From UHGV virus genome UHGV-1355782: 43,206 nt of DNA; one strand, 5' to 3'. This DNA comes from a virus. The notes beneath the pieces are model-generated. The model saw nothing but the letters and a program-made list of their open reading frames with translations. It had not been told where the DNA came from and ran no database searches. This document shows, in pieces, positions 6,221 through 24,424 of this stretch (within the stretch, counting starts at the first letter, position 1; every line of letters starts with the position of its first letter). A program made the position numbers and the translations under genes.

Positions 6221-6249
6221 TTGACTTTTCACTAAAAATGTGCTAAGCT
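6221..6249 (+). promoter_or_regulatory. strong sigma70-type promoter (TTGACT-N17-TGnTAAGCT) driving structured leader RNA copy A
   Basis: -35 TTGACT 6221-6226, extended -10 TG-c-TAAGCT 6242-6249; near-identical promoter at 37441. Confidence 0.55.
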
Positions 6250-6253
6250 CCAC

Positions 6254-6363
6254 CTGAGCTTGTGAAGTATGAACAAGCGACCGCGGCGCGGGCAGGTAAC
6301 GGAGCGGGACGTAAGTCCTGAGTGTAGTTACGCTGACGCGTTCGGAAGGGCCATAGTCTATTG
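6254..6363 (+). ncRNA. conserved promoter-proximal structured RNA element, copy A (candidate cis-acting leader or small RNA)
   Basis: no ORF; about 110 nt highly similar to 37473-37584; conserved stem GCTTGT/ACAAGC; hairpin GGGAC-gtaa-GTCCT replaced by GTGCC-atta-GGCAC in copy B. Confidence 0.35.
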
Positions 6364-6429
6364 CTTGTGTAAAAAGTAACTGGTTTACGGAGATTACGCC
6401 GTTTCTATGTTTAAATGATAAGGACTAGC

Positions 6430-6449
6430 GCCCCGCTTTAAGGCGGGGC
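6430..6449 (+). promoter_or_regulatory. GC-rich hairpin (weak intrinsic terminator/attenuator) between leader RNA and spanin RBS
   Basis: GCCCCGC-tttaag-GCGGGGC followed by short TTTACTT. Confidence 0.3.
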
Positions 6450-6473
6450 TTTACTTATCGAGAAAGGAGAAAC

Positions 6474-6860
6474 ATGAATCTTAAAGCAACTGTCGTAGCG
6501 GGAGCATGTTTCATCATCCTGGCCTACGCACACGGCATCTACCAGTATCGCAGCGGCTGGGGCGAAGGCCGCGCTAATCTCGTTTCGCAGCAACAGCAGA
6601 AAGCACAGGCTGAGTTAGCGAAGAAAACACAACGGCAGCAGCAGGACGAATCGAAGGCCGCAGCCGCTGACAACGAAGGCAAGACGAAATCGGAGGTGAT
6701 TACCCGTGAAGTCGTTAAGTACATTAAAACGCCTGGCCGCAGCGTGTGCACTTTCGACGATGCTCGCGTCCTGCTCAAGTCCCGCGCTGTCACCAACGCC
6801 AATTCCATCCCCGGATACGACGATGATGCAGCCGCCGTGCAAACTGGCGCTGCCAAGTAG
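6474..6860 (+). CDS. i-spanin (Rz-like)
   Basis: N-terminal TM segment LKATVVAGACFIILAYAHGIY, Q/A/E/K-rich coiled-coil periplasmic region; RBS AAAGGAG; o-spanin overlaps in another frame. Confidence 0.65.
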   Translation: MNLKATVVAGACFIILAYAHGIYQYRSGWGEGRANLVSQQQQKAQAELAKKTQRQQQDESKAAAADNEGKTKSEVITREVVKYIKTPGRSVCTFDDARVLLKSRAVTNANSIPGYDDDAAAVQTGAAK

Positions 6861-6969
6861 CGACTCGGACGAGGATTTAGCTATCGACGTTCAGAACGCT
6901 GAATGCATACGGCAACTAAGACTGAAAGTGTTCATGCTGCAGGATTACGTGAGGAATATTCTGGAATAG
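6706..6969 (+). CDS. o-spanin (Rz1-like lipoprotein), overlapping i-spanin in +1 frame
   Basis: GTG start with strong RBS GGAGGTGA; lipoprotein signal with lipobox LASC; proline-rich mature region. Confidence 0.65.
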   Translation: MKSLSTLKRLAAACALSTMLASCSSPALSPTPIPSPDTTMMQPPCKLALPSSDSDEDLAIDVQNAECIRQLRLKVFMLQDYVRNILE

Positions 6970-7050
6970 TTGCCTTGCATGTTGGAATAATTTATTCTTG
7001 ACATGTAAATCCGGGGGGCCGGGTTCCAACGTCCAGGGGACATACTGACT

Positions 7051-7752
7051 ATGAATCGTTTTTTACGTTACCCGTTCCAGGAAGAAGCTGGGGCAGAAGA
7101 TAAAGCTGGCGGCGGTGGCGCGCCAAAAATGTTCACCGCTGAAGAAGTTCAGGCGCTGATTGAGAAAGAAGTTGCCGGGCTTAAGGCCAATCAGGAAGCA
7201 TTGCTGGCGGAGAAAAAAGAAGCCGCCCGTAAAGCAAAAGAGGCCGAAGAAGAACGGCAGCGCGCGCACCAGGAGGCATTAAAAGCTGCTGGTAAGATGG
7301 ACGAGTTCGAAAAGACGATTCGTAGCCAGTATGACCCGGTGTTAGCTGAGAAAGATGGTCGTATCTCCAGAATGGCAGAGCGCATCCTCGGCAGCGAACG
7401 TAAAGCGGTGTTAGGTTCTTTCGCAGGTGACTTTATCACCCCGGAAGCAGTGGACATTCTTGCACCGTTCGTTAAGACTGAGTTCGAAGGCGATGACGTG
7501 GTTACTAAGTTTGTTGGCGCAGATGGCAACGTAATCACGACTGACACGGAACAGTTCCGCAAATACCTGCGCGAACACAAAGCGTTTTCGCATTTGATTA
7601 AAGCAAATGCAGCTTCCGGCGGCGGGGCTTCCGGTAGCAAAGGCGGCGGGGCCGCACCAGCGTTTAAAGACATGAGTGAAGCAGAGCGTTTAGCCCTGCA
7701 TAAATCGAACCCTGCCGAATTTGAACGGCAACTTAAAGCCCTGAGGAAATAA
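7051..7752 (+). CDS. scaffolding protein (putative)
   Basis: 233 aa, Ala/Glu/Lys-rich coiled-coil, immediately upstream of major capsid gene. Confidence 0.6.
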   Translation: MNRFLRYPFQEEAGAEDKAGGGGAPKMFTAEEVQALIEKEVAGLKANQEALLAEKKEAARKAKEAEEERQRAHQEALKAAGKMDEFEKTIRSQYDPVLAEKDGRISRMAERILGSERKAVLGSFAGDFITPEAVDILAPFVKTEFEGDDVVTKFVGADGNVITTDTEQFRKYLREHKAFSHLIKANAASGGGASGSKGGGAAPAFKDMSEAERLALHKSNPAEFERQLKALRK

Positions 7753-7754
7753 TA

Positions 7755-8804
7755 ATGGCAATTACCACTATCGGCGATATCGTAACTGGCAACATCCCGG
7801 TCCTGGCGTCTTACATGACCGAGGACCCGGTAGAAAAAACCGCGTTCTTCCAGTCCGGCATTCTGACCCCGACTCCGTACGCTGCCGAGATTGCCCGCGG
7901 CCCGTCCAACATCGCTAACATTCCTTTCTGGAAAGCGATTGATACCTCTATCGAGCCAAACTACTCGAACGACGTATACCAGGACATCGCAACCCCACGT
8001 AACGTGCAGACCAGTGAGATGATGGCGCGCGTAGCGTATCTGAACGAAGGATTCGGTCAGGCTGACCTGACTGTTGAACTGACCAGCCAGAACCCGCTGC
8101 AATCAGTAGCGTCCCGTCTGGATAACTTCTGGCAGCGCCAGGCACAACGCCGTCTGATTGCTACCGCGCTCGGCCTGTACAATGACAACGTAGCCGCTAC
8201 CGACGCATACCACGAGCAGAACGACATGGTAATTGACGTGTCCGCTACTCTTGGCTTCGACGCTGGAGCATTCATCGACGCTACCCAGACTATGGGCGAC
8301 GCACTGATGGGTAATGGTGGCGAAGTGCTCGGCGCTATCGCGATGCACAGCTTCGTTTATGCACAGGCGCGTAAACAGCAGCTTATCGACTTCATCAAAG
8401 ACGCTGACAACGACACCTTGTTCGCCACCTACCAGGGCTACCGCGTGATTGTTGACGACAGCATGACCGTAGTCGGTACTGGCCCGAGCCGTAAGTTCAT
8501 TTCCATCATCTTCGGTAACGGCGCTATCGGTTACGGCGAAGGTTCTCCGTCCAACCCGCTGGAATACGAGCGCGAAGCGTCTCGCGGCAACGGTGGTGGC
8601 GTTGAAACTTTGTGGACTCGCAAGACCTGGTTGCTGCATCCGTTTGGTTACAGCTTCACCAGCGCAGTAATCACCGGCAATGGCACCGAGACCGTAGCAC
8701 GCTCTGCTTCCTGGCAGGACCTGGCGAACGCCTCCAACTGGAACCGTGTGGTTGACCGTAAGCATGTACCGATTGCCTTCCTGGTAACTGGTGTAGGGGC
8801 TTAA
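7755..8804 (+). CDS. major capsid protein
   Basis: 349 aa after scaffold gene; RBS GAGGAAA; followed by strong terminator; synteny. Confidence 0.8.
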   Translation: MAITTIGDIVTGNIPVLASYMTEDPVEKTAFFQSGILTPTPYAAEIARGPSNIANIPFWKAIDTSIEPNYSNDVYQDIATPRNVQTSEMMARVAYLNEGFGQADLTVELTSQNPLQSVASRLDNFWQRQAQRRLIATALGLYNDNVAATDAYHEQNDMVIDVSATLGFDAGAFIDATQTMGDALMGNGGEVLGAIAMHSFVYAQARKQQLIDFIKDADNDTLFATYQGYRVIVDDSMTVVGTGPSRKFISIIFGNGAIGYGEGSPSNPLEYEREASRGNGGGVETLWTRKTWLLHPFGYSFTSAVITGNGTETVARSASWQDLANASNWNRVVDRKHVPIAFLVTGVGA

Positions 8805-8820
8805 GGTTAAGCTATAATCG

Positions 8821-8847
8821 AGAGGGACTTCGGTCCCTCTTTTCATT
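8821..8847 (+). terminator. rho-independent terminator after capsid gene
   Basis: AGAGGGAC-ttcg-GTCCCTCT followed by TTTCATTT. Confidence 0.65.
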
Positions 8848-8865
8848 TACTAAGAGGATTCCTAA

Positions 8866-9207
8866 ATGGCAGACGTATTGAAGCGACGCATCACCGGCGT
8901 CTCCGCTGATACCCCGGGTGCTAAGATTGACATGGCTACTATTTCTCCTGCGTCTTTCTCATCCGCGCTGGCGGCTACTACCACAGTAACCGCGGGTGAA
9001 ACCATGACACTGACCGTAACCGTAACCGGCGGTCTGGAGCCGTATTCCTACCAGTGGTACAAGAATAACAACGCCATCGCCGGGGCAAACGCTGCTTCCT
9101 ATGCTAAAGCGTCGACCACTACCGCCGACTCCGGCACGTATAAAGTGGTTGTTCACGATGTGTATGGTAATATTATCTCCAGCAGCACTGTAGCAACTGT
9201 GTCTTAA
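8866..9207 (+). CDS. Ig-like domain protein (possible head decoration)
   Basis: RBS AAGAGGA; Ig-like motif YSYQWYKNNNAI...SGTYKVVVHD; resembles C-terminus of 5325-5786 product. Confidence 0.5.
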   Translation: MADVLKRRITGVSADTPGAKIDMATISPASFSSALAATTTVTAGETMTLTVTVTGGLEPYSYQWYKNNNAIAGANAASYAKASTTTADSGTYKVVVHDVYGNIISSSTVATVS

Positions 9208-9243
9208 TACAACGGCCCTTCGGGGCCGTAATAAGGAAAGGTC

Positions 9244-9423
9244 ATGGCAGATAATTATGTAATCCGCGAAAAGTACACCCACGTCGATATTGTTGACGGT
9301 CAGGTGATGCCTGTTCGCGGTGTGGTAGAAGCGGATGAACTGGTTGCGACTCAACCGGACAACGAAGAAGCGCACAACAACGGCGGTGGTACTAAGCGTC
9401 GTCGCCGTAAGTCAGAGGAATAA
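9244..9423 (+). CDS. hypothetical small protein (59 aa)
   Basis: ATG 9244 with RBS AAGGAAAGG; basic C-terminus KRRRRK; below ORF-track cutoff. Confidence 0.35.
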   Translation: MADNYVIREKYTHVDIVDGQVMPVRGVVEADELVATQPDNEEAHNNGGGTKRRRRKSEE

Positions 9424-9426
9424 TTT

Positions 9427-9939
9427 ATGCCGCTAATCGTGGAAACTGGGGCAATCGTCCCGAATGCCGACAGTTACGTTAGTCTGGCTGACGCCCGCGC
9501 GTTAGCGGCTAATTATGGCCTTGAACTGCCGGAAGACGATACCGCCGCAGAGGTGGCCCTGCGCAACGGCGCTACGTATATCGGGCTTGCAGAACCGCAG
9601 ATGTGCGGTCGTCGTGTATCCGCTGAACAGTCTCTGGCGTATCCTCGCACTGGTGTTACGCTAAACGGGTTCCCTGTAGCGAACAATGCCATCCCAAAAC
9701 AGGTTATTCTTGCGCAGGTAATCGCCTCTGCTACATATGGTGCGGGTACAGAAGTGCGGGCTAACTCTGATGGGCGTTCCGTGCAGACCGAGCGCGTAGA
9801 AGGTGCAGTAACAGTGACCTACTTCAACAACGGCAACAGTGGCACTACAACCGCGATTACCGCTGCTGACGACGCTCTACGCCCGTTATTGTGTGGTGGT
9901 CTTAACAATGGCTTCTCGTTTAACGTGTACCGGGGTTGA
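9427..9939 (+). CDS. head-tail connector/structural protein (putative)
   Basis: position in neck module; translationally coupled to following genes. Confidence 0.45.
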   Translation: MPLIVETGAIVPNADSYVSLADARALAANYGLELPEDDTAAEVALRNGATYIGLAEPQMCGRRVSAEQSLAYPRTGVTLNGFPVANNAIPKQVILAQVIASATYGAGTEVRANSDGRSVQTERVEGAVTVTYFNNGNSGTTTAITAADDALRPLLCGGLNNGFSFNVYRG

Positions 9940-10556
9940 AAATGGCGAAGACAAAAACAGAGATGTTTACCCTTATCGGCGCGAACCTCCCCGATAACAC
10001 CACCGGACTTATTACCCCCGCGAAACTACGCGAGGTAATGACGCAGATGGCTGACTCACCTATTTACGCCACTCCTGGCGTTAAAGAGGTTGAAGTTCTC
10101 CGCGCAGCGTCGACCGTAGCACAAGTGCCATCCGCAGTGGACACAGCGTTGCAGTTAACTTTCGGCTCCGCTCAGGGAAGCGCATCTGACCCGGTAATGA
10201 TTAATGCCGCTGGGCTGGTTACGTTTAACACCGCGGGTAACTACGCCGTTCGCATCAAGTTACAGGCCGGGCGTACGGGGGCGAGTGGTACATCAATCCT
10301 TTTATCACGCATTCTCCTTAACGGCGCTCAGTACGGCTCCCCCGCAGCTACTAAACTGGTCAGCGCCGACGTAACGATTCCGATTGAATCCCGCGTCGTT
10401 ATTAACCCGACAGCAGGCCAGACGTTTGCCGTTCAGATTATGCGAGATAGCTCCGGAAGCAACTACGGTGGCGTATACCCGCAAGCGGCTACCGTAACCG
10501 CATGGGGCACTGCACCGTCCGCGCTACTGGTTATCTCTAGACTGGAGGCCGCCTGA
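9936..10556 (+). CDS. structural protein (putative)
   Basis: ATGA overlap with upstream gene; within head-tail joining module. Confidence 0.45.
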   Translation: MKMAKTKTEMFTLIGANLPDNTTGLITPAKLREVMTQMADSPIYATPGVKEVEVLRAASTVAQVPSAVDTALQLTFGSAQGSASDPVMINAAGLVTFNTAGNYAVRIKLQAGRTGASGTSILLSRILLNGAQYGSPAATKLVSADVTIPIESRVVINPTAGQTFAVQIMRDSSGSNYGGVYPQAATVTAWGTAPSALLVISRLEAA

Positions 10557-10915
10557 TGAGCACCGCTTTCAGTAAACGTATGCAAGGCGTTGGCACACGC
10601 CTGCTAACCAAATTCGGCAGCACGGTATCTCTTGTTCGCGCTGGTTCGAAAGTATGGGATGAAGTTCTCGGTGAGTACGTCTGGTCTGCGGATGAAGTGC
10701 TGCCGTTGAAGGCCGTTCCGGTTCCGGTAAACGCGGGACTGGTAAACGGTACGACGATTCAGGCCGGTGACATGATTGTTAAAGCCGATTACCGCGTCGT
10801 ACCGAAGATGGAAGACAAGGTACAATTCGGCGGCGAGCAATGGTCTATCGAAGCTATTGAGAAGAAGATGGTTAATGATGATGTCGTAGCCTACTTTATT
10901 CAGGTAAGAAAATGA
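10556..10915 (+). CDS. head-tail joining protein (putative)
   Basis: coupled start; size and position. Confidence 0.45.
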   Translation: MSTAFSKRMQGVGTRLLTKFGSTVSLVRAGSKVWDEVLGEYVWSADEVLPLKAVPVPVNAGLVNGTTIQAGDMIVKADYRVVPKMEDKVQFGGEQWSIEAIEKKMVNDDVVAYFIQVRK

Positions 10916-11310
10916 CACCATTTGAACAGTCTATTCAGAATTTTATAAAGAAGGCCAAAAAGAACCCTGAACTGGTGGTTCGCCAGGTCACGATTAAATT
11001 ATATTCTCAGATTATAATGGCAAGTCCCGTTGACACGGGTAGATTCCGGATGAATTGGCAGGTCAGTAATAACACGCCAGCAACGGGTGTTTTAATAGCC
11101 AACGACCCTTCCGGGAGCAGAGCCATAGGTCGGATGACAAGTTACGTTATGTCATCTCCTGAGTGGGAAAATTTCTGTTTTACAAATAATTTGCCATATG
11201 CGGAAAGGTTAGAATATGGGTACTCACAGCAAGCACCTCAAGGCATGGTCCGTGTGACTGTCGCCAGATTCCAACGTCTACTCAACGAAGCTGCGGCGAG
11301 GGCAGATTGA
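10912..11310 (+). CDS. neck protein, HK97 gp10-like (putative)
   Basis: motif AERLEYGYSQQAPQG resembling the LEYG signature of HK97 gp10-type proteins; synteny. Confidence 0.5.
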   Translation: MTPFEQSIQNFIKKAKKNPELVVRQVTIKLYSQIIMASPVDTGRFRMNWQVSNNTPATGVLIANDPSGSRAIGRMTSYVMSSPEWENFCFTNNLPYAERLEYGYSQQAPQGMVRVTVARFQRLLNEAAARAD

Positions 11311-11723
11311 TGGGCTATTTCGAGGACTTAACAAAAGCGTTCGATGTGCCGCTGGTAGCCTTCGGAACAACCAACGGCATCAAGGTTGCGCTTGAAAACA
11401 TCGACACACCGACGTCAACCGACACACCGTATCTGGCAAGTTACATGTTACTTGCGGACACCGAGCAGGCGGATTTGTTCTTCACGGAACAACGCTCTGG
11501 TATTTATCAGGTTGACATTAACTACGCATCGGTGAAAGGTAGCGCGCCAATCAATAAAATGGCAGACTTACTTAACACGGCGTTTAAAGCAGGTAAGTCA
11601 TTTTCACGTAACGACATCTGCGCCGAGGTTCAATCGGTTAGCCTGGGGCCGCTGATTGTAGAAAACGGATGGGCCAAACGGCCATTGTCAATTAACTTTA
11701 TCGCATTCACCAAGAGGCTGTGA
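11307..11723 (+). CDS. tail terminator/completion protein (putative)
   Basis: position immediately upstream of major tail protein; coupled start. Confidence 0.4.
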   Translation: MMGYFEDLTKAFDVPLVAFGTTNGIKVALENIDTPTSTDTPYLASYMLLADTEQADLFFTEQRSGIYQVDINYASVKGSAPINKMADLLNTAFKAGKSFSRNDICAEVQSVSLGPLIVENGWAKRPLSINFIAFTKRL

Positions 11724-11725
11724 AT

Positions 11726-12763
11726 ATGGCTACAACTCCTTTTAAGGGCGCGAATACCGCGCAATTCTATGTGGCGGAAGTGACCCCGGGCGTAACACCA
11801 AGTAACCCGGTCTGGTCGCCGTTGCGAAACACCGGCGGCGTTCCTGCGGTAACCCGCGACGCGCTGACCTCCAACGAACTGGACGGCAGCCGTGAAACCA
11901 CATCCATCCGCACCGGTAACAAGCAGGTTAGTGGTGAGTACGCAATCGAACTTAGCTCACGTAGCCAGGATGATTTCCTCGCAGGCGCGATGACGTCTAC
12001 GTGGCAGGATGGCGTAACCTTAACTGCGGTAGGTATTACGGTAGACCCGGTAGCGAAAACCTTCACCCGCGCCGCCGGTAGCTTCATTACCGATGGCGTT
12101 GAAGTCGGCGACCTTCTGTACTTCGACGGCTTAACCGGAGACAACGCCAAGCCGTTTATCGTTACCGCGGTAACTGCTACGGTTGTTACGGGTGCGGGTA
12201 TCCAACACACCCTGACCGCCGAAGGCCCTATCGAGACCGACGGTAAAACGGGTGACAAGCTGGAAACCGGTAACGCGTGTAAGACATTCTCCATCCTGAC
12301 GTGGTTCAAAGGACAGTGCGGGAACCCGGACGCGTACATGTTGACCAAAGGTGTGGAAATCTCCGGTTTTACTATCGAGCAAGCCGTAAATGCGATGGTA
12401 ACCGGCAGCTTCCCATTCATCGGTCTGAGTCAGGAGATTCTTACCGCGGCGCCAGCAGGTTCCGACTTCTCCCAGGTCACATTCACTGACGAGCCGTTCT
12501 CTTCTGTAGATGTGTCTGTGTTCGACGGTTCTACGCCGTTGCGTTGCGATACTCTGACCATCACCAACGACAACGGTGCTTCCGCGCAGTTCGAACTCGG
12601 CAACAGTAGCGTCGCGTTCGTGGAACGTGGTCGCGCAGCTAACACCTTCTCCATCTCTGGTAAGCTGTACGACATGGCGATGATTCAGAAGTTTATCAAC
12701 GAGCAGCAGGTAGAGATTAACTCTATTCTGGCGGGGGTAAACGGGCTATGTCTTTCAGTTTAA
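11726..12763 (+). CDS. major tail protein (putative)
   Basis: ATG 11726 with RBS AAGAGG (ORF track starts at GTG 11720); Thr/Gly/Val-rich; followed by strong terminator. Confidence 0.55.
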   Translation: MATTPFKGANTAQFYVAEVTPGVTPSNPVWSPLRNTGGVPAVTRDALTSNELDGSRETTSIRTGNKQVSGEYAIELSSRSQDDFLAGAMTSTWQDGVTLTAVGITVDPVAKTFTRAAGSFITDGVEVGDLLYFDGLTGDNAKPFIVTAVTATVVTGAGIQHTLTAEGPIETDGKTGDKLETGNACKTFSILTWFKGQCGNPDAYMLTKGVEISGFTIEQAVNAMVTGSFPFIGLSQEILTAAPAGSDFSQVTFTDEPFSSVDVSVFDGSTPLRCDTLTITNDNGASAQFELGNSSVAFVERGRAANTFSISGKLYDMAMIQKFINEQQVEINSILAGVNGLCLSV

Positions 12764-12898
12764 AACGCGCAGAGCTTACGGCGGTCACACCAGAAATATC
12801 TGGCCCGGAATCAATTACCCAAAGCATAGAAGGACAGTCCACAGGCAACCAGTATCAGTCGTCTATCGTAATTCAACGTATTAGTTACGTATAAAACT

Positions 12899-12923
12899 AA
12901 GGCCCCGAAAGGGGCCTTTTTCT
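12899..12923. terminator. bidirectional rho-independent terminator
   Basis: AAGGCCCC-gaaa-GGGGCCTT flanked by T-run downstream and A-run upstream. Confidence 0.7.
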
Positions 12924-13099
12924 TACTCACTTTTGAACGGCATTTCGTAGAAGTTAGTTAACTGGCCTCGGTCACTTCGTTCTGTCATTTCTTTCGAGGC
13001 CTCTTCCTTGCTACCGACAGCATAAATATCAACCCACTCATCCCATTCTTCGTCATATACACGGATTACATATATTGTTTTCATAATATTTTCACTCAT
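12923..13099 (-). CDS. hypothetical protein (58 aa)
   Basis: ATG 13099 with RBS AGGAG 8 nt upstream; last gene of antisense island. Confidence 0.4.
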   Translation of the reverse strand: MSENIMKTIYVIRVYDEEWDEWVDIYAVGSKEEASKEMTERSDRGQLTNFYEMPFKSE

Positions 13100-13322
13100 C
13101 AATATTACTCCTGTACTCCCGTAACTTCTCCAGACTTTCAATTGCTTCTGCTAAGTCGGTTCCGGTGTCTTTGTGACCGCGCAGACCCATACACAGCAGT
13201 TTCTTTAACGCATGCTGTAGCGCCGGGTCACGGATATCGAAGGCGCGTAGCACATCATAGACGTCTACTGTCATGGTGCTGCCGTGGGTGTTTGTCATTG
13301 TGCGGTTGTATTTTGAAGTCAT
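13092..13322 (-). CDS. hypothetical protein (76 aa)
   Basis: ATGA coupling to upstream HNH gene; RBS GAGAGG. Confidence 0.45.
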   Translation of the reverse strand: MTSKYNRTMTNTHGSTMTVDVYDVLRAFDIRDPALQHALKKLLCMGLRGHKDTGTDLAEAIESLEKLREYRSNIDE

Positions 13323-13792
13323 TTTCCGTGCCTCTCAGTAAAGTCTTTCTTTTCTTTGTAAAAACCTTCGGCATATCTTACGGCGTCTTCTTTGTTGTCG
13401 AAACGCTTGGCTATTCTATTTCCGTTATATTGAATTTGAACTACCCACTTACCGTTATATGTTTTACTAACCCCGGTAACGCCAGACGAGTTATCCCTGC
13501 GCTTTGCTGCATTTTTGCAGTTTATGCGCCGGTCACACAGTCGAAGATTCTCTATACGGTTATCGCTTTTCACACCGTTTATATGGTCAATCTCCTTGCC
13601 TTCTGGTATAGCTCCGTTAAACATTTCCCATATAATTCTGTGGGCGAATGTCATTTTTGACCCTAGTTTAGTTCTTACATACCCTCGTTGGTCCACATAC
13701 CCTACTTTACGTCCTTTCGGGTACTTAGGGTTTACGCTGTCCTTAGCGTAAAGATTCCCGTTTTCGTATTCGTAAACATCATTCCATGTCAA
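13319..13792 (-). CDS. HNH homing endonuclease with AP2-like DNA-binding domain
   Basis: HNH motif EIDHINGVKSDNRIENLRL; C-terminal AP2-like GVTGVSKTYNGKWVVQIQYNG; TTG start coupled (TTGA) to upstream gene. Confidence 0.75.
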   Translation of the reverse strand: MTWNDVYEYENGNLYAKDSVNPKYPKGRKVGYVDQRGYVRTKLGSKMTFAHRIIWEMFNGAIPEGKEIDHINGVKSDNRIENLRLCDRRINCKNAAKRRDNSSGVTGVSKTYNGKWVVQIQYNGNRIAKRFDNKEDAVRYAEGFYKEKKDFTERHGK

Positions 13793-14928
13793 TTTATACC
13801 CCCTATCATTTCTGGTGATATTGTTAAACGTGCCACCTCCCCATATTCGGCACTATAAGTTATCACGTTAGCACTACGACCGGACATCCAGCCCCCTCGC
13901 GATGCGTAAGCATCTTTCGCAGCCAGGGTTCGGTGTTGTTCGACTACCATATTGCGGCTTTCTACTAATTTCTGATGATGTAGATGCCCTACATGAGCGT
14001 AGCTGTATGTGCTTTCTCCAAAAGCCTTACGGAATTTAGAAATCATTACTGACTCTATGGCGTCGAATCTCGCACGGTGTCCATGATGCATGAATAGCGT
14101 AGTTTTCCCGTGCTGGACCATCTTGTATACGTCTGGGGAGGTGTCCACAAATACGCGAGGTTCGTTGTCGTACAATGTACAGAACATTTCGGCGAGCCAT
14201 ACAGAGCCTACAGGGTCGTGGTTACCTTGAACTATTAAAAGTTTGACTGTGTGATGTTTAACAAGCGCCATATCGACAACACGACGCACCATACGAATCA
14301 TGTAGCGAACTAGTTTCTGATAGCGAGTATCGGCGTCTAACACATGACGCGACTCAGGGGTAACGGCATCAAGACTATCGAAGTGCGCGAAGTCGCCCAG
14401 CAGGTTAATAACCCCAGTCCCCGCATCCGGTGCTTTCTGAAACGCGGCATCGAACCAGCGGGAGAACAGGTCTTCTGCAATCTTCATATCCCAGTCATCG
14501 CCGCTCTCGTCAGCCCATGCAAGCATACCGAGATGGAAATCAGATACAGTGTAGAGATTGAGCAGTTTATCGTCACGTTTGGCGCGAACAGGTTTAACAG
14601 GCGCAACCGGTGTAATCTCTGACTTCATACCTTCAATCACGGCTTTCATCAACTCGACCTGACGTTCGGCATCGGTGTCGGTCTTAACCCATTGCAACTT
14701 AGTGTTGCCAAACTCGTCCACCAGGGACGACGTCCCTTTAATCTTGTAGCCGTCCGGTACAAGGTGACTAACATCACGCCCGTGACCTACGCCTTTCTTT
14801 GCCAGCTTCGCTTTACGGATACGAATTACGCGGTCTGAGATGCCGTATTTACGGGCGATGTCTACATTCTTCATCCCGGCGTTCAATTCTTCCTGTAACT
14901 GTTCGTCGGTTATTTTCTTCTGGGCCAT
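13789..14928 (-). CDS. HTH-domain protein fused to calcineurin-like metallophosphoesterase
   Basis: N-terminal HTH (VDIARKYGISDRVIRIRKAK); metallophosphatase motifs LLGDFAHFD, VQGNHD, HHGH; RBS GAGGAAG. Confidence 0.7.
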   Translation of the reverse strand: MAQKKITDEQLQEELNAGMKNVDIARKYGISDRVIRIRKAKLAKKGVGHGRDVSHLVPDGYKIKGTSSLVDEFGNTKLQWVKTDTDAERQVELMKAVIEGMKSEITPVAPVKPVRAKRDDKLLNLYTVSDFHLGMLAWADESGDDWDMKIAEDLFSRWFDAAFQKAPDAGTGVINLLGDFAHFDSLDAVTPESRHVLDADTRYQKLVRYMIRMVRRVVDMALVKHHTVKLLIVQGNHDPVGSVWLAEMFCTLYDNEPRVFVDTSPDVYKMVQHGKTTLFMHHGHRARFDAIESVMISKFRKAFGESTYSYAHVGHLHHQKLVESRNMVVEQHRTLAAKDAYASRGGWMSGRSANVITYSAEYGEVARLTISPEMIGGIN

Positions 14929-14966
14929 GCTTACTTCCTCGTGTTTAGGATTTGTCCTATACTAGC

Positions 14967-15158
14967 TCACTTCTCGTTAACATTCGAGTTGCACGCCCAG
15001 ATTAAAATAAATACCCACGGCAGCAGAACCCAACCAAGAAACAGGTTAGCCATAAATATTGCCAACTTCGCTTTATGGTTGCGGAAATACGCAACCAGGA
15101 AAGGCGCGAAATAAGCGAGAAGTGCAAACAGAATTAAGGAAACTGGTAAACTTGACAT
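14967..15158 (-). CDS. small membrane protein, superinfection-immunity-like (Imm family-like)
   Basis: two TM segments with motif NLFLGWVLLPWVFILIWA; RBS AAGGGG before ATG 15158 (ORF track starts 15173). Confidence 0.5.
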   Translation of the reverse strand: MSSLPVSLILFALLAYFAPFLVAYFRNHKAKLAIFMANLFLGWVLLPWVFILIWACNSNVNEK

Positions 15159-15188
15159 TTTAAACCCCTTCATTGTTGGTGTAAGTGA

Positions 15189-15217
15189 ATAGTACCCTAT
15201 TATATTGGGGTGTGCAA
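15189..15217 (-). promoter_or_regulatory. class-1 promoter TTGCAC-N17-TACTAT with palindromic operator (15187-15202)
   Basis: near-identical to element at 6126-6154; directly upstream of antisense island. Confidence 0.5.
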
Positions 15218-15325
15218 GTAATGTGATAGAATAATTTTGCGCCTAGTGTCGCACACGAAAAGCGGGTGGTTCCCGTCTGGCGCATTTACCTTTAACCTGT
15301 AACCTCTTAACCAAAGGATTAAAGA

Positions 15326-15745
15326 ATGAAACTTTCTGATTTTTATTTCGAAGAGAAAGCACTGGTAGGCAAGAAGATGCCGATTCTGCTACCGAACGGC
15401 GAAGACTCAGGGGAGTGGCTTAACGTTGTAAGCCCTGATGCGGATGCCGCCGTTAAAGCAGGGCGTGCTTTCATTATCGCGTACCGTCGCGGGTTGGCAC
15501 GTTTCGAAGAACTGGAAAAAGCAGCCAAAGAATCCGGCGACTATACTGAATATAACCTGGCTGTTAATGAACTGGCGGAAGACCTCAACAGACAACTCGC
15601 GGCAGAAGTAGTAAACGGCTGGAGTTTTGACGACGAGCCTTTCTCTAAGGATGCGTTTAACAAATTGCTGGACCAGTTCAAAGGGCTTGGAACCCAGGTG
15701 GCGTCGTTCCATAACGCTGAGCGCAAAGCATTACAGGAAAAGTAG
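15326..15745 (+). CDS. tail assembly chaperone (G-like)
   Basis: 139 aa acidic protein between major tail protein and tape measure; RBS AAAGGA; open -1 frame overlapping its 3' end. Confidence 0.55.
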   Translation: MKLSDFYFEEKALVGKKMPILLPNGEDSGEWLNVVSPDADAAVKAGRAFIIAYRRGLARFEELEKAAKESGDYTEYNLAVNELAEDLNRQLAAEVVNGWSFDDEPFSKDAFNKLLDQFKGLGTQVASFHNAERKALQEK

Positions 15746-15921
15746 ACGCGCTGTACAGGTTCGCCACCTACGAGTTTGTGGATAAGCATAAAATCAGAGA
15801 GTTTGATTCTATAGCTGACGGTCACGAGCAGGCGCTTATCGCGATGGGTGTAATCGATAAGAAAAAAACGTGCAGCGCGACGGGGTGGGCCAGAATGCCC
15901 GCCCCTTTTTATATCCACCTT
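15721..15921 (+). other. candidate -1 programmed frameshift extension (GT-like) of tail chaperone
   Basis: -1 frame is open from 15721 (after TGA 15718-15720) to stop at 15922-15924; putative slippery heptamer G GAA AAG at 15736-15742 just before the G stop codon. Confidence 0.3.
15882..15912 (+). terminator. rho-independent terminator-like hairpin between chaperone and tape measure genes
   Basis: GGGGTGGGC-cagaat-GCCCGCCCC followed by TTTTTAT. Confidence 0.5.
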
Positions 15922-16103
15922 TGAGACGTATTGCGACATTAAGTTTACGCGACACGTGCGCAAGGACGCTGTAGTATTGTTTGCAAGAGAATCCGTTACG
16001 TGGCAAGACCTGAAAGCCTATCTCGATGTTACGCAAAAACAGCTTAGCCTGTTCGAGATAGACATTATCATGGGCTTAGAAGCAATCTTTGAAGGTAGAA
16101 ATC

Positions 16104-18374
16104 ATGGCTGATATCGCTAGCTTGATAGTACGAGTATCCGCAACCGGCGTCGATAAAGTCACATCACAACTGAACGGGCTTACTAAAGCCGCAGGCGCCG
16201 CCGCGGCTGCCGTCGTCAGTCTGGAAACCGCTAAGCAGGTGTTCAGCGCGCTGGTGGACTCCCAGCGCAACTTCGATAAGCTGAACTCCGGCCTAATCAC
16301 AATGACCGGGAGTGCTGAGAACGCGGCTAAGGCTTTCAGCGTCCTGCAACAGTTCGCGAAAGAAACCCCATACGGGCTTAACCAGGCGGTGGAAGGCTTT
16401 ACTAAGCTGGTGGCTCTGGGTCTGAACCCCAGCAAAGAAGCGTTAATCTCCTACGGCAACACCGCAGCGGCTATGGGTAAAGACCTTAATCAGATGATTG
16501 AGGCCGTGGCGGACGCCAGTACCTTTGAGTTTGAGCGGCTGAAAGAGTTCGGCATTAAGTCGTCACAGCAGGCAGATACAGTTTCGTTCACGTTCCGCGG
16601 CGTTACCACCACGGTTAAAAAGAACTCCGAAGAGATTCAGAAATACCTGCTAAACATCGGCAATACTGATTTCGCCGGGGCGATGGAGACGCGCTCGAAG
16701 ACATTAGATGGTCAGTTGTCGAGCCTCGCCGACTCCTTCGACGGCCTTGTTCTTGCCGTAGCGCAATCAGGTTTTGGCGACGCCGTAGGCGAGCAAGCTG
16801 CAACAGCGGAAGATGCTATCACGTCACTCACCGACGCCATAGCGTCTAATGAGATAGTCGCCACGCTCCAGGATTGGGTGACACTGTTCAATGAATCGTT
16901 CAAGTTTATTTCTGATGCCTTGAACGACCTGGCATTTGACACCGAGGACAAATCCGCAGATATGTCAGACTCGCTGGGAACTATCCCTGATGCCATCAGG
17001 GAGTGGTTGCCTGACATCCAGCAGACATTCCACGAGGTTATCGCGTGGTTCCAGCGTATTGACGATTACGCCGTAGCGTTAGGTCAGACCCTTGCTGATG
17101 TGTTTGACCCGAGCAAAACGGCAGCGCTCACATTTAAAAACCTTACCGCAGAGGCTGATGCCGCATACGATGCCAGCATAAAACGGGCGGAGGCCGAGTC
17201 GCAGGCCATTACCAACAGGTCTAAGCAGCGTAAGAAAGAAATTGAGGAACAACGCAAGCAGTATGATGAGCGCAAGAAGCAAGAGATTGACTTAGCCAGC
17301 CTTGTTAATAAAAAGGGTGAAAATGGCGGAGCCGGAAACACCAACGACAAAGACGCGAAAGCCGCGGCTAAGAAAGCGGAGCAATTGCGTAAACAGGCGC
17401 AAGATTACCTCGATACTCTGGCCCGTCAGAATAACGACGAGTTAAAGGCTATTGACGCGCAGGAACAGCAGAAACTGGCTAAAGCAAAAGAGTTCTACAG
17501 CCAGGGCGCGTTGTCGCTGAAAGAATACGAGCAAGCAAAAACGGCTATTGTCCTCGAAGCCGGGCAAGCACGGCAGGAAGAGCTGGATAAGCGAGAGAAA
17601 GAACGGCAGGAAAAGCAACAGAAAGGTGACGACTTCATGGCTCAGATTATGGGCCAGAACGCTACTGAGCTTGAGCTTCTCGACATCCAGGAACAGCAGA
17701 AACTGGCGGTAGCCGATAAATACCGCGAACAGGGTCTGATTAACGAGGAACAGTATCAGGCGGCGCTTAACGCTATAAATGAGCAGTATGCCACGAAACG
17801 TGCAGATGCTTTAGGTAGTTCTTTCGGTGACATGGCGGCTAATGCTAAAACTGCATTTGGCGAGGCGTCCACCGCGTATAAAGCGTTCGCTATTGCACAG
17901 GCCACTATCGCCACGTACACATCGGCTATTGAGGCATATAAGTCAACGGCTGCCATCCCTGTTGTCGGCCCATTCCTGGCGCCGGTTGCCGCAGCTACTG
18001 CCGTTGCCGCGGGGCTGGCTAATATCGCCAAAATCCGCTCGGCACGTGAGCAGGGCGGTCAGTTATCAGCGGGGCAGATGTCTACCATCGCAGAACGCGG
18101 CAAACCGGAAGTTATCATGCCTGCTGGCGCATCGCGCGTACGAACTGCGCAGCAGATGAAAGAGATTATGGGGCAAAACGGCGGCCAGTCCGGCGGTGAT
18201 AACGTCACTATAGTTAATAACACTACGGGGCGCGTAGATTCTGCTGTAACAGAACGTGATGACGAAGGGCGTTTACGTATTATAATCAGTGAAACAGTAG
18301 CGTCGCAGTTACAGGATAACAACTCACCGATTTCTAAAGCTCGCCGCTCTACTCGCGGTCAGCCGGGGTATTAA
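16104..18374 (+). CDS. tail tape measure protein
   Basis: about 757 aa, Ala/Gln/Glu-rich with long coiled-coil segments; ATG 16104 (ORF track starts at TTG 16089). Confidence 0.8.
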   Translation: MADIASLIVRVSATGVDKVTSQLNGLTKAAGAAAAAVVSLETAKQVFSALVDSQRNFDKLNSGLITMTGSAENAAKAFSVLQQFAKETPYGLNQAVEGFTKLVALGLNPSKEALISYGNTAAAMGKDLNQMIEAVADASTFEFERLKEFGIKSSQQADTVSFTFRGVTTTVKKNSEEIQKYLLNIGNTDFAGAMETRSKTLDGQLSSLADSFDGLVLAVAQSGFGDAVGEQAATAEDAITSLTDAIASNEIVATLQDWVTLFNESFKFISDALNDLAFDTEDKSADMSDSLGTIPDAIREWLPDIQQTFHEVIAWFQRIDDYAVALGQTLADVFDPSKTAALTFKNLTAEADAAYDASIKRAEAESQAITNRSKQRKKEIEEQRKQYDERKKQEIDLASLVNKKGENGGAGNTNDKDAKAAAKKAEQLRKQAQDYLDTLARQNNDELKAIDAQEQQKLAKAKEFYSQGALSLKEYEQAKTAIVLEAGQARQEELDKREKERQEKQQKGDDFMAQIMGQNATELELLDIQEQQKLAVADKYREQGLINEEQYQAALNAINEQYATKRADALGSSFGDMAANAKTAFGEASTAYKAFAIAQATIATYTSAIEAYKSTAAIPVVGPFLAPVAAATAVAAGLANIAKIRSAREQGGQLSAGQMSTIAERGKPEVIMPAGASRVRTAQQMKEIMGQNGGQSGGDNVTIVNNTTGRVDSAVTERDDEGRLRIIISETVASQLQDNNSPISKARRSTRGQPGY

Positions 18375-18377
18375 TTA

Positions 18378-18872
18378 ATGAGCGATTTGAGATTCCCAAT
18401 GTCCCTTCGCCCGATAGTGTCGAAGGGGTACTCCCAGACCAGGGGGAGTAATATCTGGCGCACCGAGGTTCAGGGTGGGTTACCTCGACAGGGGAGGGAC
18501 ACGTACTTCGAACCGGTTCCTATTAGTGTAACGCTCGTCGTGTCTTCTCTCGGGCGCCAGGCGTTTTATAGCTTCCTGAACAACATCGACGGCGGGGCGT
18601 CCTCGTTTATCATGCCGCATGATACAGGTATGGGCATCGAGGACCACCAGATACTCATCACGTCGACGATTAGTGACAGCACCGACGACGGAAAGAACTG
18701 GGTGATTACGTTCACTGCTACGGCAGAGAGAACAGCGATTCAGGAAGATACATGCCTTACTAAGAATCTACCGGATTTGTTCGGCTGTTATGGGGATTGC
18801 TTAGGCGGATTCCTTAAAGCATACGGAACCGCGCAATCAACGTTTCCACGAATTTGGGACCCGATGCAATGA
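18378..18872 (+). CDS. minor tail protein (gpM-like, putative)
   Basis: first gene after tape measure; size and synteny. Confidence 0.45.
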   Translation: MSDLRFPMSLRPIVSKGYSQTRGSNIWRTEVQGGLPRQGRDTYFEPVPISVTLVVSSLGRQAFYSFLNNIDGGASSFIMPHDTGMGIEDHQILITSTISDSTDDGKNWVITFTATAERTAIQEDTCLTKNLPDLFGCYGDCLGGFLKAYGTAQSTFPRIWDPMQ

Positions 18873-19384
18873 GTCAGGAATCAGTAGAAGCTGCATATCG
18901 CCGTAAACTGGCATCAAACCCAGACGGCGAACTGGATTACATTACGCTTGAAATAACACACCCGCTTCTCTCAAAGCGGTGGTTGCTTGTGCGCGGTACG
19001 TCTGACCTTACCGCTACGCTTGAGACTGGCGAAACCGTTACGTTCGAGGCCACGCCTATGGACGCCAAGAACGCCGCGAACAATAATGACATGGACCAGA
19101 CAGCGTCATTCTCGCTGCCGGATGTCCTTAACATTCTCGATGAAGAGATGGACCGCATCCCCTACAGCAACACAGAGTTGCCTAAATTCATATTCCGCCG
19201 CTACGTAAGCACGGACCTGTCGTACCCGTGCGACGGCCCAGTGGTATATGAGTTGCAGACGTTGACGCAAGAAAAAGGCGTGTTCACCGCCGAGACCGGA
19301 ACGCCTATGCTCAACCAGCGGCAGACCGGAATCCTGATGACACCGGAAGAAATACCGCTGCTGCGTGGGGTACTTTTGTCATGA
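18869..19384 (+). CDS. minor tail protein (gpL-like, putative)
   Basis: ATGA coupling at 18869-18872; synteny. Confidence 0.45.
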   Translation: MSQESVEAAYRRKLASNPDGELDYITLEITHPLLSKRWLLVRGTSDLTATLETGETVTFEATPMDAKNAANNNDMDQTASFSLPDVLNILDEEMDRIPYSNTELPKFIFRRYVSTDLSYPCDGPVVYELQTLTQEKGVFTAETGTPMLNQRQTGILMTPEEIPLLRGVLLS

Positions 19385-19746
19385 GTATCACCGATTATAC
19401 GGGCACCCCTTATGACTTCCGTCGTTACAATTGTTGGCATCACGTGCGCAGGGTGCGCGGTGATGTTGGCCTATCTACGCCCGCTTTCGACGTAACATCA
19501 CCAACTGCAATACCCGCGGCGTTTGATGCTGGGCACTCCAACCCTAAAGGTCTGGAACGCACCACCAGTCCGCAGAATTATGATGCCGTGTTGCTGGGCA
19601 CTTATCACAGAGGGCGTGTAGTGTGGCATGCAGGCGTGTATTATGATGGAATGGTGAGCCACTGTGAGTTAGCATCCAGACAAGTGCGTCTCGACCGCCT
19701 TGACGATTTACGCGACACATATCAGGAGATTGAATTTTGGCGATAG
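19381..19746 (+). CDS. tail assembly protein (gpK-like, putative)
   Basis: 121 aa with Cys/His-rich segment YNCWHHVRR; synteny. Confidence 0.4.
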   Translation: MSITDYTGTPYDFRRYNCWHHVRRVRGDVGLSTPAFDVTSPTAIPAAFDAGHSNPKGLERTTSPQNYDAVLLGTYHRGRVVWHAGVYYDGMVSHCELASRQVRLDRLDDLRDTYQEIEFWR

Positions 19747-22286
19747 TCATCCACTACACCCGCAACGAAGACGGGACGTTCTCGCAAAAACGGCATAACG
19801 ACTCGCCGCTGAATTTCGTCGTAAAACATATCCCTGATGGTGTGCCGTTTCGCGTTTTCCTCGAAGAGATAGGAGAGGATAACGACGTAACAGAAAATTT
19901 CGACGCGTTAAAACAGGATGCTGTTTTCCACGTCCTGGAAGGTGCTGGCGGCGGTGCTATCAAGGGTGTGATGAAAGTGTTCAGCATAATCCTTAAACCT
20001 CTAGCTAAATTACTCACACCGTCAACAAAGGGCGCGTCTAACAATCTCGCTAACCAGCAAGCGGACTCGCCGAATAACAGCCTGACAGACCGGAATAACA
20101 AAGCTCGCCCGTACGAGCGAACTTATGACATCTGCGGTAGGGTGCAGACAATACCTAATAACCTTATGACCACTTATAAGGTTTTCGATAACGCGGGCCG
20201 CATCATTGAGTATGGCTACTATGATGCCGGGCGCGGGTATCTTGACGTTAAAGCAGAAGACATCACCGACGGTGACACCAAAGTCCAGGAGATAACCGGA
20301 ACTTCTGTCGCGGTGTATGCCCCGTACACATCACCCAATAACACAAGCTCCCCTCAACTTCTTGTTGGCGAACCTATCGACCAAAAGTTGTATACCACCA
20401 TCGCATCTAATGAAGTAGATGGCGCGGTACTGAAAGCGCAAAACGGCATAAGGGTAAACCCCAGCGATACCGGTGAGATATCGCTGCAAGGGACAACGGG
20501 TATTGTACGTGACGCGACCGGAGATTCCGCGTTTACAGAAATTCTGTCAGTTGGCGATGTGGCTGTTTTCAATCTCATTCTGGTAAAAGATGTCGCTAAC
20601 GTAAGCGGTAATTATGTGGTCACTTACGTCGATGATTTCGAGGTTAGAGTCGCTGTAGGTGGTATGCTCACCGAATGGCAGAAGTTGCCGTCTGGTTTCA
20701 CACGGCTGACACAGGGTAACGAGGCGTGGATTTCACCCTCAAACACATATGATAAGTCATTAACGGACTGGACTACGCTTAACCGTCTGCCGGTAGAGCG
20801 CATCGTCGCCAATATCGCCGCCGCTAACGGCATGTATAAAGACAACGGCAGTAAACTAAGGGCTTCCGTTACCGTCGAGTTGCAGTACCAGTTACTCGAC
20901 GACACCGGAACACCCTACGGGCCTGTATATAGTAAACAAGGCACTATCTCCGGGCGCTCCTCGGATTACACAGGCGTGACAATCTACGCTGACCTGCCAT
21001 CACCGTCTAACGTTCGTGTACGGGCGCGCAGGGTGACAAACCTTGACCTTGCTTTTGAGGGTACAGTAGTGGACGAGGTTTCTTACATAAACCTGTACGG
21101 GCAAATACGCGACACCACACCTAACTTCGGCAACAGAACCACCGTGCATTCCGCACGTAAACAGACGCCACGGGCCGCAGAGGTTAAACAACCACAATTG
21201 CGAATGGTAGTAACTGAGATGGTATACAAGTACCTCGGTAACGGTGTTTTTGACTCCGTAAGAACGCCAAACACGCAAGCGGTACAGTCCCTGATACGGC
21301 TTGCTCGCGACCCGGATGTCGGCGCGTTGAATCTGACAACGGCAAATATGGATAAACTGTTAGCGGTACAGAGCGAAATTGAAAGCTATTTCGGAAGCGC
21401 ATCCGCCGGTCAGTTCTGCTACACATTCGACGATTACAAAACTACGATGCAGGACATAGTAACCACGATAGCGGAAGCAATTTTCTGTACCCCATATCGG
21501 AGAGGTGCAGATATTCTTCTGGACTTTGAACGCCCGCGGATTGGCCCTGAGATGGTATTCACCCACCGCAGCAAAACTACCGCTACGGAGAAGTGGACGC
21601 GCACGTTTAACGATGCCCAGGTATACGATAGCCTTAAGTTTTCATACATCGACCCGGATACTAACGTCAAAGAGACAATCAGCATCCCGGCCGAAGGTGG
21701 GGTTAATACTGAAACGTACGACTCTAAAGGTATCCGTAATTATCGACAGGCGTACTGGGCCGCATATCGTCGATACCAGAAAAACCTGCTGAAAAAGGTC
21801 ACGGTATCTTTCACGGCTACAGAAGAAGGGATTTTTGCGATGCCAGGACGTGCCGTAAGTGTGGTGAAAGGTTCTCGCATAGCCCCTCAGGATGGCTATA
21901 TAATCGCCGTTAACGGGCTGACGCTTACGTTATCACAGCCGGTTACGTTTACCTCCGGGGATGACCATTCACTCATCCTTAAGAAGCGTGATGGCGGAGT
22001 TCAGAGTGTTGCAGTTGTGCCGGGGAGTCACGACCGTGAAGTGATTATGTTATCGGCGCCTCAAGAAGCGATTTACACGGGGAATAGCGCGCTAAAAACT
22101 GAGTTTTCATTCGGCAACGAAGCAAGGCATAATGCTCAGATGATTCTCGTTTCTACAGTTGACCCCGGAGATGACAGAACAGTTAAGATTACCGGGATTA
22201 ACTACGAAGCGGATTTCTATAAATACGACGGCGTCGCGCCATACGGCAGCGGTTTCTCCGACGGATTCGGCAATGGTTTTAATTAA
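19737..22286 (+). CDS. tail tip / central fiber protein (J-like host specificity protein)
   Basis: 849 aa downstream of the K-like gene; RBS AGGAGA before TTG 19737. Confidence 0.55.
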   Translation: MAIVIHYTRNEDGTFSQKRHNDSPLNFVVKHIPDGVPFRVFLEEIGEDNDVTENFDALKQDAVFHVLEGAGGGAIKGVMKVFSIILKPLAKLLTPSTKGASNNLANQQADSPNNSLTDRNNKARPYERTYDICGRVQTIPNNLMTTYKVFDNAGRIIEYGYYDAGRGYLDVKAEDITDGDTKVQEITGTSVAVYAPYTSPNNTSSPQLLVGEPIDQKLYTTIASNEVDGAVLKAQNGIRVNPSDTGEISLQGTTGIVRDATGDSAFTEILSVGDVAVFNLILVKDVANVSGNYVVTYVDDFEVRVAVGGMLTEWQKLPSGFTRLTQGNEAWISPSNTYDKSLTDWTTLNRLPVERIVANIAAANGMYKDNGSKLRASVTVELQYQLLDDTGTPYGPVYSKQGTISGRSSDYTGVTIYADLPSPSNVRVRARRVTNLDLAFEGTVVDEVSYINLYGQIRDTTPNFGNRTTVHSARKQTPRAAEVKQPQLRMVVTEMVYKYLGNGVFDSVRTPNTQAVQSLIRLARDPDVGALNLTTANMDKLLAVQSEIESYFGSASAGQFCYTFDDYKTTMQDIVTTIAEAIFCTPYRRGADILLDFERPRIGPEMVFTHRSKTTATEKWTRTFNDAQVYDSLKFSYIDPDTNVKETISIPAEGGVNTETYDSKGIRNYRQAYWAAYRRYQKNLLKKVTVSFTATEEGIFAMPGRAVSVVKGSRIAPQDGYIIAVNGLTLTLSQPVTFTSGDDHSLILKKRDGGVQSVAVVPGSHDREVIMLSAPQEAIYTGNSALKTEFSFGNEARHNAQMILVSTVDPGDDRTVKITGINYEADFYKYDGVAPYGSGFSDGFGNGFN

Positions 22287-24400: not shown

Positions 24401-24424
24401 AGGCCCCAAACGGGGCCTTTTCTC
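24401..24424 (+). terminator. rho-independent terminator after tailspike
   Basis: AGGCCCC-aaac-GGGGCCT followed by TTTCTC. Confidence 0.65.

Follow-up and report, generated by a model that had tools for sequence, protein, structure and literature searches.

The 43,206-nucleotide (nt) virus genome UHGV-1355782, analyzed here as a single stretch and called the window below, carries a tail assembly chaperone gene, G, whose -1 frame stays open beyond the stop codon. We consider it very likely that this locus is the G/GT chaperone pair of a K1G-like siphophage, in which a -1 frameshift at G_GAA_AAG joins G to an extension, T, of 122 codons, that the run of seven A interrupting T in the window is a miscall, and that a terminator-like hairpin, apparently selected, lies inside T. 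Judged from its sequence, the window is a Kagunavirus-like (Guernseyvirinae) siphophage, a K1G-like phage of Escherichia coli. The elements of the locus, all on the strand analyzed (+), are as follows.

15326..15745 (+): gene G, tail assembly chaperone of 139 amino acids, from its open reading frame (ORF) and translation; zero-frame stop TAG at 15743-15745.
15736..15742 (+): slip site G_GAA_AAG, with the conserved core A_AAG at 15739-15742 and the stop codon directly 3'.
15742..15868 (+): first, N-terminal portion of the extension T, which starts at the re-read G and follows the -1 frame; translation VDALYRFATYEFVDKHKIREFDSIADGHEQALIAMGVIDKKK; positions 139-187 of the profile phrog_15027.
15748..15753 (+): block GCGCTG, 6-11 nt beyond the slip site; relatives read GCGYTG, and this is constant over 53 distinct sequences.
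15862..15868 (+): homopolymer of seven A (A7) with one extra A, six A (A6) being found in every other copy; it shifts the rest of T and makes an apparent stop at 15922-15924.
15869..16111 (+): C-terminal part of the T extension, 81 codons with the Phage_TAC_18 domain, ending at TGA 16109-16111; out of frame with the N-terminal part in the window only.
15882..15912 (+): intrinsic-terminator-like hairpin (stem of 9 base pairs, 6-nt loop) and T tract, inside the T frame, where it codes for GGPECPPLFI.

G matches the first part of phrog_15027, 'tail assembly chaperone' (E = 9.5e-69, profile positions 1-138 of 259), and reaches 20.0 bits, borderline to the cut-off of 21.1, with Pfam PF08748 (Phage_TAC_4); its counterparts in the phages K1G, RP180 and Bas74 carry the annotation tail assembly chaperone. 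As given, the window keeps its -1 frame open over 15721-15921, between a stop at 15718-15720 and the TGA at 15922-15924; the stretch starting with the re-read G at 15742 has 60 codons. When one A is removed from the homopolymer, T comprises 122 codons, from 15742 to the TGA at 16109-16111, and is identical to the T ORF of the assembled contig CYGL01000123.1; the corrected G-T fusion has 261 amino acids and its stop lies 8 nt into the tape measure gene. T matches Pfam PF23812 (Phage_TAC_18) with E = 1.8e-18, and G and T map to two halves of the one phrog_15027 profile with E about 1e-68 per half. A tblastn search with the corrected T returned 494 phage records, of which 491 carry it in a single frame covering at least 80% of T, at identities down to 40%. 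A sequence search of the PDB with the corrected G-T gave no informative relative.

The slip site was examined in 80 related IMG/VR loci, gathered with a G-T protein alignment, in 79 of which the G stop could be located. NNA_AAG followed by TAA or TAG ends G in 78 of the 79; the exception, L042, is the IMG copy of phage SS3e, where an assumed G start that lay out of frame produced an artefact, a 100-residue 'G'; this locus was excluded. The codon before AAG is GAA at 54 of these 78 loci, GCA at 16, GTA at five, AAA at two and GGA at one. The zero frame of G in the window ends CAG GAA AAG TAG, which places G_GAA_AAG at 15736-15742, and among the 35 genes of the window only G ends in A_AAG plus a stop. 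In some lineages the overlap of the G and T frames is as short as 6 nt, and the shift is therefore confined to the last two sense codons. Positions -4 to +1 (AAAGTA) are invariant in the 53 distinct sequences, and the flanks of the A_AAG-stop element vary among related loci while A_AAG_TAR stays invariant. Only in RP180 (loci L035 / L002) has a Glu-to-Gly change produced the canonical lambda heptamer G_GGA_AAG, and two environmental loci (L087, L089) have a dnaX-type A_AAA_AAG at the G end. Just 3' of the stop, positions +5 to +7, +9 and +10 of the GCGYTG block are 100% conserved in the same 53 sequences; among them are two third positions of codons where changes would be synonymous, while conservation at adjacent third positions is just 40-62%. 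The GCGCTG at 15748-15753 may be a 3' context element of the frameshift signal.

The T frame behaves as coding sequence from the junction onward. Its third codon positions are the most variable from the first T codons, and the residues E138, K139, V140, A142 and L143 do not vary at the junction, in proteins sharing 46-55% identity otherwise. T is 120-122 codons long in all complete loci except L042. The extension does not reach the tape measure start in the window as given (stop 15922); it does so once the extra A is removed, where the tape measure ATG at 16104 overlaps the T end (ATGGCTGA), and it does so in 75 of 76 related loci, where the T stop overlaps that ATG as ATGNCTRA. Lineages differ widely in where the T frame first offers a potential start codon, between 57 codons ahead of the junction and 108 beyond it, and in most cases no Shine-Dalgarno-like sequence accompanies that codon. 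The locus thus has what characterizes the G/GT class (Xu, Hendrix & Duda 2004): two overlapping ORFs directly upstream of the tape measure gene of a long-tailed phage; a downstream ORF that has no conserved start yet is conserved as coding sequence from the junction; a slip site in the overlap, here a recognized NNA_AAG hexanucleotide type (PMC5009743) and a non-canonical heptamer; and membership of a tail assembly chaperone family (phrog_15027, with T on PF23812).

By comparison among phages, then, the conserved arrangement makes a predicted -1 frameshift of the G/GT type well supported. The arrangement is well known and is already annotated in near-identical phages: RefSeq has joined frameshift coding sequences (CDSs) in K1G, K1H, Shemara and fFiEco03. 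The original prediction had proposed a lambda G/GT-like -1 frameshift at this heptamer, with the lysine transfer RNA (tRNA-Lys) slipping from AAG to AAA, and this proposal is supported by the A_AAG-stop element at 78 of 78 loci, by a T without a conserved start and by the joined RefSeq CDSs. The positions that it gave for the G stop, the open -1 frame at 15721-15921, the heptamer and the hairpin also hold in the sequence. It had likened the heptamer in its logic to that of lambda; the heptamer is not of the canonical X_XXY_YYZ form, and the conserved core is the NNA_AAG hexanucleotide.

Existing records do not agree on this point. Those of RP180, Bas74, LSPA1 and AG11 call T a separate CDS, either a second 'tail assembly chaperone' or hypothetical, and the announcement of a related phage, Shashou, doubts the slippery sequence, reporting 'no canonical slippery sequence' (PMC6776780). 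Read in this way, T would be an independent gene with its own start codon, for example the GTG at 15778, which opens a 48-residue ORF in the window, and there would be no fusion by frameshifting. We find this quite improbable. First-start positions are scattered by lineage and mostly have no ribosome-binding-like sequence of the Shine-Dalgarno kind; conservation of residues sets in at the first codon of T, ahead of any start; A_AAG_TAR is invariant; and the PHROG profile that spans both halves was built from the fused protein.

The end point of T in the window requires separate consideration, since the original prediction described an extension of 59 codons ending in the hairpin. That short extension ending in a terminator, the feature that looked unusual, is, as far as other copies of the sequence can tell, an artefact, the product of a one-base homopolymer error. 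An alignment with K1G, RP180 and Bas74 contains a single insertion or deletion (indel) in this stretch, at which the window reads AAGAAAAAAACG with A7 against A6 in the others. When an 80-nt query across the run was compared with GenBank, all 43 matches were one base shorter than the query, and exact pattern matches in IMG/VR numbered 0 for A7 and 17 for A6. What is evidently the same phage is present in public assemblies, with zero substitutions relative to the window over stretches of 4.6-16 kb, and both of the same-phage assemblies that span the run have A6 (contig CYGL01000123.1 of NCBI GCA_001292545.1, and Logan ERR975059_20). The original prediction had looked to close relatives for interruptions of the -1 frame; the situation proves to be the inverse, with the frame interrupted in the window and intact in the relatives.

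The wider pattern of differences leads to the same interpretation. Compared with the Logan assemblies, the window differs by 1-nt indels only, at 7013, 12743, 15862, 37763, 42193, 42255 and 42365, almost all of them in short same-base runs and accompanied by zero substitutions. Because there are indels but no substitutions, we attribute these differences to sequencing or assembly error and not to evolution. One of them breaks the frame of the major tail protein gene (11720..12763, continuing to ~12894) at 12741-12743, where three G stand for four, about 50 codons before the end. The extra G at the 12743 site is present in all 60 relatives among the matches listed (of 100 matching records), in RP180 and in the otherwise identical assemblies, and the shorter run in the window is probably a sequencing error, as for the A7 run. 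The NCBI assembly GCA_001292545.1 has indels of its own (2646, 2678, 4970, 4975, 19794), which split its terminase and Mu_F-like genes; GCA_001292545.1, ERR975059 and ERR975060 all look prone to indel errors. Given the other assemblies, the extra A at 15862-15868 would be a miscall of homopolymer length, and because this single base accounts for it, the apparent end point at 15922 is not biological. Some Logan contigs (from ERR975060 and ERR975067; loci L109, L110 and L117) stop at 15859 or 15866 or begin at 15899, precisely where the A run and the hairpin lie. Contig breaks at 15859-15899 suggest read-level heterogeneity or a drop in coverage.

If A7 were instead real, the phage would make a truncated G-T' of 199 amino acids, or would recover a low level of full T by +1 ribosomal or transcriptional slippage on the run. 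A7 is, after all, the sequence as given; seven As permit perfect re-pairing of tRNA-Lys either way, correction of indels by slippage is a known phenomenon (PMC5009743), and the contig breaks at 15859, 15866 and 15899 could reflect heterogeneous reads. We nonetheless regard a genuine A7 as highly doubtful. It occurs in none of the 43 GenBank relatives and in no IMG/VR match, and two otherwise identical assemblies have A6; the six further private 1-nt indels without a substitution, one of them disrupting the major tail protein, form an error signature; the C-terminal part that would be lost is the conserved Phage_TAC_18 domain; and two rare events in series would yield vanishingly little G-T.

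With the frame restored, T reads through the hairpin region (RRGGPECPPLFI), so that the hairpin lies inside T and not, as had been described, between the chaperone and the tape measure gene. It consists of GGGGTGGGC-CAGAAT-GCCCGCCCC at 15882-15905 followed by TTTTTAT, with 8 of its 9 pairs being G-C. Its folding energy is -20.6 kcal/mol (z = -3.6 relative to shuffles), it is the top-ranked terminator-like site in positions 1-20000, and it has the U tract of an intrinsic terminator, the tail TTTTTATAT lying directly 3' of the stem. On the reverse strand no T tract adjoins it. A hairpin with a T-rich tail is present in 43 of 76 related loci. It begins 134-141 nt past the stop of G, its stem takes at least 10 different forms, and no such site lies elsewhere in G..T. 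The outer stem pairs vary by lineage with complementarity kept, the arms being GGGGTGGGC/GCCCGCCCC, AAAGGGGC/GCCCCTTT, GAGGGGC/GCCCCTC, ACGGGGC/GCCCCGT and AAACGGGGC/GCCCCGTTT, with a T-rich tail after each; pairs 19-38, 20-37 and 21-36 each occur as 3-4 standard pair types. In ~10 lineages the real hairpin sequence is more stable than 96-100% of its synonymous recodings. The AG11 locus (L094) has no hairpin of the GPECP kind, and at the same place in T it has a different 7-base-pair stem (AGGCGGA...TCCGCCT) followed by TTTATCTT, which may be an independent replacement of the element. A literature search for a terminator inside T found nothing.

The hairpin and T tract are most likely, on this comparative evidence, a leaky intrinsic terminator or a 3'-end stabiliser that would keep the messenger RNA (mRNA) of G in excess over that of the tape measure gene. 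Such an element would have had to fit within T because T must be contiguous with G. Strong terminator-like sites also lie directly after the genes for abundant structural proteins, namely the major capsid, major tail protein and tailspike genes (8820-8841, 12899-12918 and 24401-24418, respectively). A further strong terminator-like hairpin, at 5790-5809, directly follows the ORF at 5325-5786, whose counterpart is annotated in RP180 as a Hoc-like head decoration protein. These four sites are consistent with graded read-through control of structural gene dosage.

We also considered the hairpin at 15882-15905 as a stimulatory structure for the frameshift, as a very stable hairpin downstream of a slip site might suggest; downstream structures stimulate -1 frameshifting in many systems (PMC4066793). 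It starts, however, 140 nt past the slip site, where stimulators lie at ~5-9 nt, it is missing in 33 of 76 loci that retain the slip site, and the T tract after its stem is the hallmark of a terminator. We rejected this role as extremely unlikely. Weakest of all, with next to no probability, is the idea that there is no recoding and that the open -1 frame arose by chance or from overlapping genes: 16 of the 34 other genes of the window do indeed have a -1 frame that stays open for 59 codons or more beyond their stop, but what is read there is a downstream gene that has an ATG of its own in an ATGA overlap, whereas T has no start codon, the slip motif is unique to G, and the coding signal over 122 codons is kept down to 40% identity. 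In other words, because long open -1 frames past stops are common in this compact genome, in which the next gene overlaps, the length of the ORF is not by itself evidence of recoding; the open -1 frame is specific to G, and not just long, because only G ends in A_AAG plus stop, because the extension shares homology with the T half of the phrog_15027 profile and because the arrangement is conserved.

Returning to the frameshifted G/GT pair, we infer that frameshifting occurs, and infer likewise its efficiency and the function of the hairpin. Most ribosomes would translate G (15326-15742) and terminate at the TAG at 15743. A small fraction would shift by -1 on G_GAA_AAG in a low-efficiency event in which tRNA-Lys re-pairs from AAG to AAA and the glutamate tRNA re-pairs only partly, on GGA; the adjacent stop codon, waiting in the A site, probably gives time for the slip. 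Once shifted, the ribosomes would decode GTA next and stay in the T frame, which in the real phage would lead them through the hairpin region to 16109-16111 and yield the 261-residue G-T fusion. Only in the window would the extra A break T after 42 codons and generate the false 59-codon extension. The hairpin would be an element at the nucleotide level, selected inside the T frame. In favour of the site, no tetramer is more prone to shifting in E. coli than A_AAG (PMC4066793), NNA_AAG sites are in use in IS1222 and in Bacillus subtilis cdd, and G_GA is an intermediate P-site context (PMC5009743).

Several findings, besides the separate CDSs and the Shashou announcement cited above, weigh against parts of this interpretation. 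The conserved signal is an NNA_AAG hexanucleotide abutting a stop codon, and the heptamer is not of the form X_XXY_YYZ. In E. coli the frameshifting at A_AAG is ~0.15% without a stimulator and rises to as much as 5.6% when a pseudoknot is present (PMC4066793). No stimulatory structure was found 3' of the slip site: 15743-15800 and 15746-15840 fold no better than shuffles (z = +0.57 and -0.96), and RNAalifold on 20 diverse sequences from 3' of the slip site gave a consensus energy of ~0 and no conserved structure. With no conserved downstream stimulator, the efficiency of frameshifting may therefore be low. In the literature we found no mass spectrometry or reporter evidence for the fusion in Kagunavirus, Jerseyvirus or any Guernseyvirinae phage. 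As for selection on the hairpin, the 33 of 76 loci that lack it include the Jerseyvirus and Cornellvirus groups; the four inner (core) pairs of the stem are forced by the conserved G-P-E-C-P peptide; and the covariation score of 0.305, compared with 0.14 for shuffles (0 of 500 reach it), is to be set beside 0.27 for a control slid by +3.

A modest interest remains in the apparently selected terminator-like hairpin inside a frame that only frameshifted ribosomes read, and in the minimal NNA_AAG-stop signal. The hairpin could reveal how these phages maintain more chaperone than tape measure protein. The hairpin, the NNA_AAG-stop site and the GCGYTG block might even form a new device that sets the stoichiometry of G, G-T and tape measure protein, although we think this combined function unlikely. 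Ribosomes halting at the G stop would leave RNA that is untranslated and free to fold, which would terminate or stabilise the transcript and give an excess of G mRNA; only a frameshifted ribosome would melt the hairpin, so that synthesis of G-T would be coupled to read-through into the tape measure gene.

These results have practical consequences for annotation. We recommend calling G together with a 261-residue G-T fusion, and flagging as probable errors the runs of A at 15862-15868 and of G at 12741-12743; without correction, T and the major tail protein would be recorded as truncated or split genes. The comparison also settles the disagreement among the records of this phage group between a frameshift, a separate gene and 'no canonical slippery sequence'.

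The surroundings of the locus fit the assignment of the phage. Over 15000-16400 the window is 94-96% identical to ~40 Kagunavirus genomes in a GenBank comparison, e.g. K1G, RP180 and Ro145c2YLVW; the nearest GenBank genome over 25 kb is only ~88% identical. In gene order, the window leads from terminase up to the major tail protein (11720..). An opposite-strand gene block then separates this upstream gene from G, after which come T, the tape measure gene and the genes of the distal tail.

16104..18374 (+): gene for the tape measure protein, to which its RP180 counterpart aligns by tblastn with 94% identity over 16104-18371.

Pfam TMP_3 matches a protein identical to this tape measure protein. 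The window also contains three ORFs of the HNH_3 (homing-endonuclease-like) type, at 13319-13792 (-), 29746-30243 (-) and 30961-31491 (-), the first of them between the major tail protein and exonuclease genes, where RP180 has polynucleotide kinase and ATPase genes. In a search for known RNA families over 15100-16300 nothing matched at the slip site or the hairpin, the sole match being a near-threshold one in the G leader: the segment from the immunity gene to G, 15236-15300 (+), is a full-length match to the Rfam int-alpA RNA (RF02996) at 33.6 bits, just short of the gathering score, 35.8 (E = 1e-5 locally). K1G, RP180, K1H and fFiEco03 likewise have this match ahead of G (31.6-33.8 bits).

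The closest known system is that of K1G, whose ORF22A/ORF22B (NC_027993, YP_009168805 / YP_009168804) are the same genes at ~94% nucleotide identity. K1G shares G_GAA_AAG_TAG, a 122-codon T ending 8 nt into the tape measure gene, and the embedded hairpin; the window differs by one extra codon in G (FDDEPF in place of FDEPF) and by the extra A that breaks T. K1H, Shemara and fFiEco03 have joined CDSs equivalent to that of K1G, the RefSeq frameshift annotations in this group being curator predictions.

Another known system is gpG/gpGT of lambda, where a -1 shift at G_GGA_AAG gives a G:GT ratio of ~30:1. In both cases two overlapping ORFs lie immediately upstream of the tape measure gene, the T extension reaches that gene, and the -1 shift falls near the G end, with tRNA-Lys moving from AAG to AAA and no need for a strong stimulatory structure (PMC5009743); RP180 has the exact lambda heptamer. 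Unlike in lambda, the P-site codon here is GAA (GCA, GTA or AAA in relatives), only NNA_AAG is kept, the slip site abuts the stop, opposite-strand genes lie between G and the major tail protein gene, and a terminator-like hairpin is found inside T. Nor is there a Pfam match to the lambda families, G being borderline for Phage_TAC_4 and T belonging to Phage_TAC_18.

As regards the slip itself, further parallels are IS1222 (G_CGA_AAG) and B. subtilis cdd (A_CGA_AAG), in which the A-site tRNA-Lys slips on A_AAG without full upstream re-pairing (PMC5009743, PMC4066793). The variable GAA, GCA or GTA codon at the locus described here fits this hexanucleotide type. IS1222 uses a downstream stimulator, whereas here none is conserved and the zero-frame stop stands immediately 3' of the site. 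The hairpin, for its part, resembles the Rho-independent terminators that follow abundant phage structural genes, with its GC-rich 9-base-pair stem, 6-nt loop and T tract. In contrast to terminators of this kind in intergenic gaps, however, it sits in T, where it would be translated by frameshifted ribosomes only.

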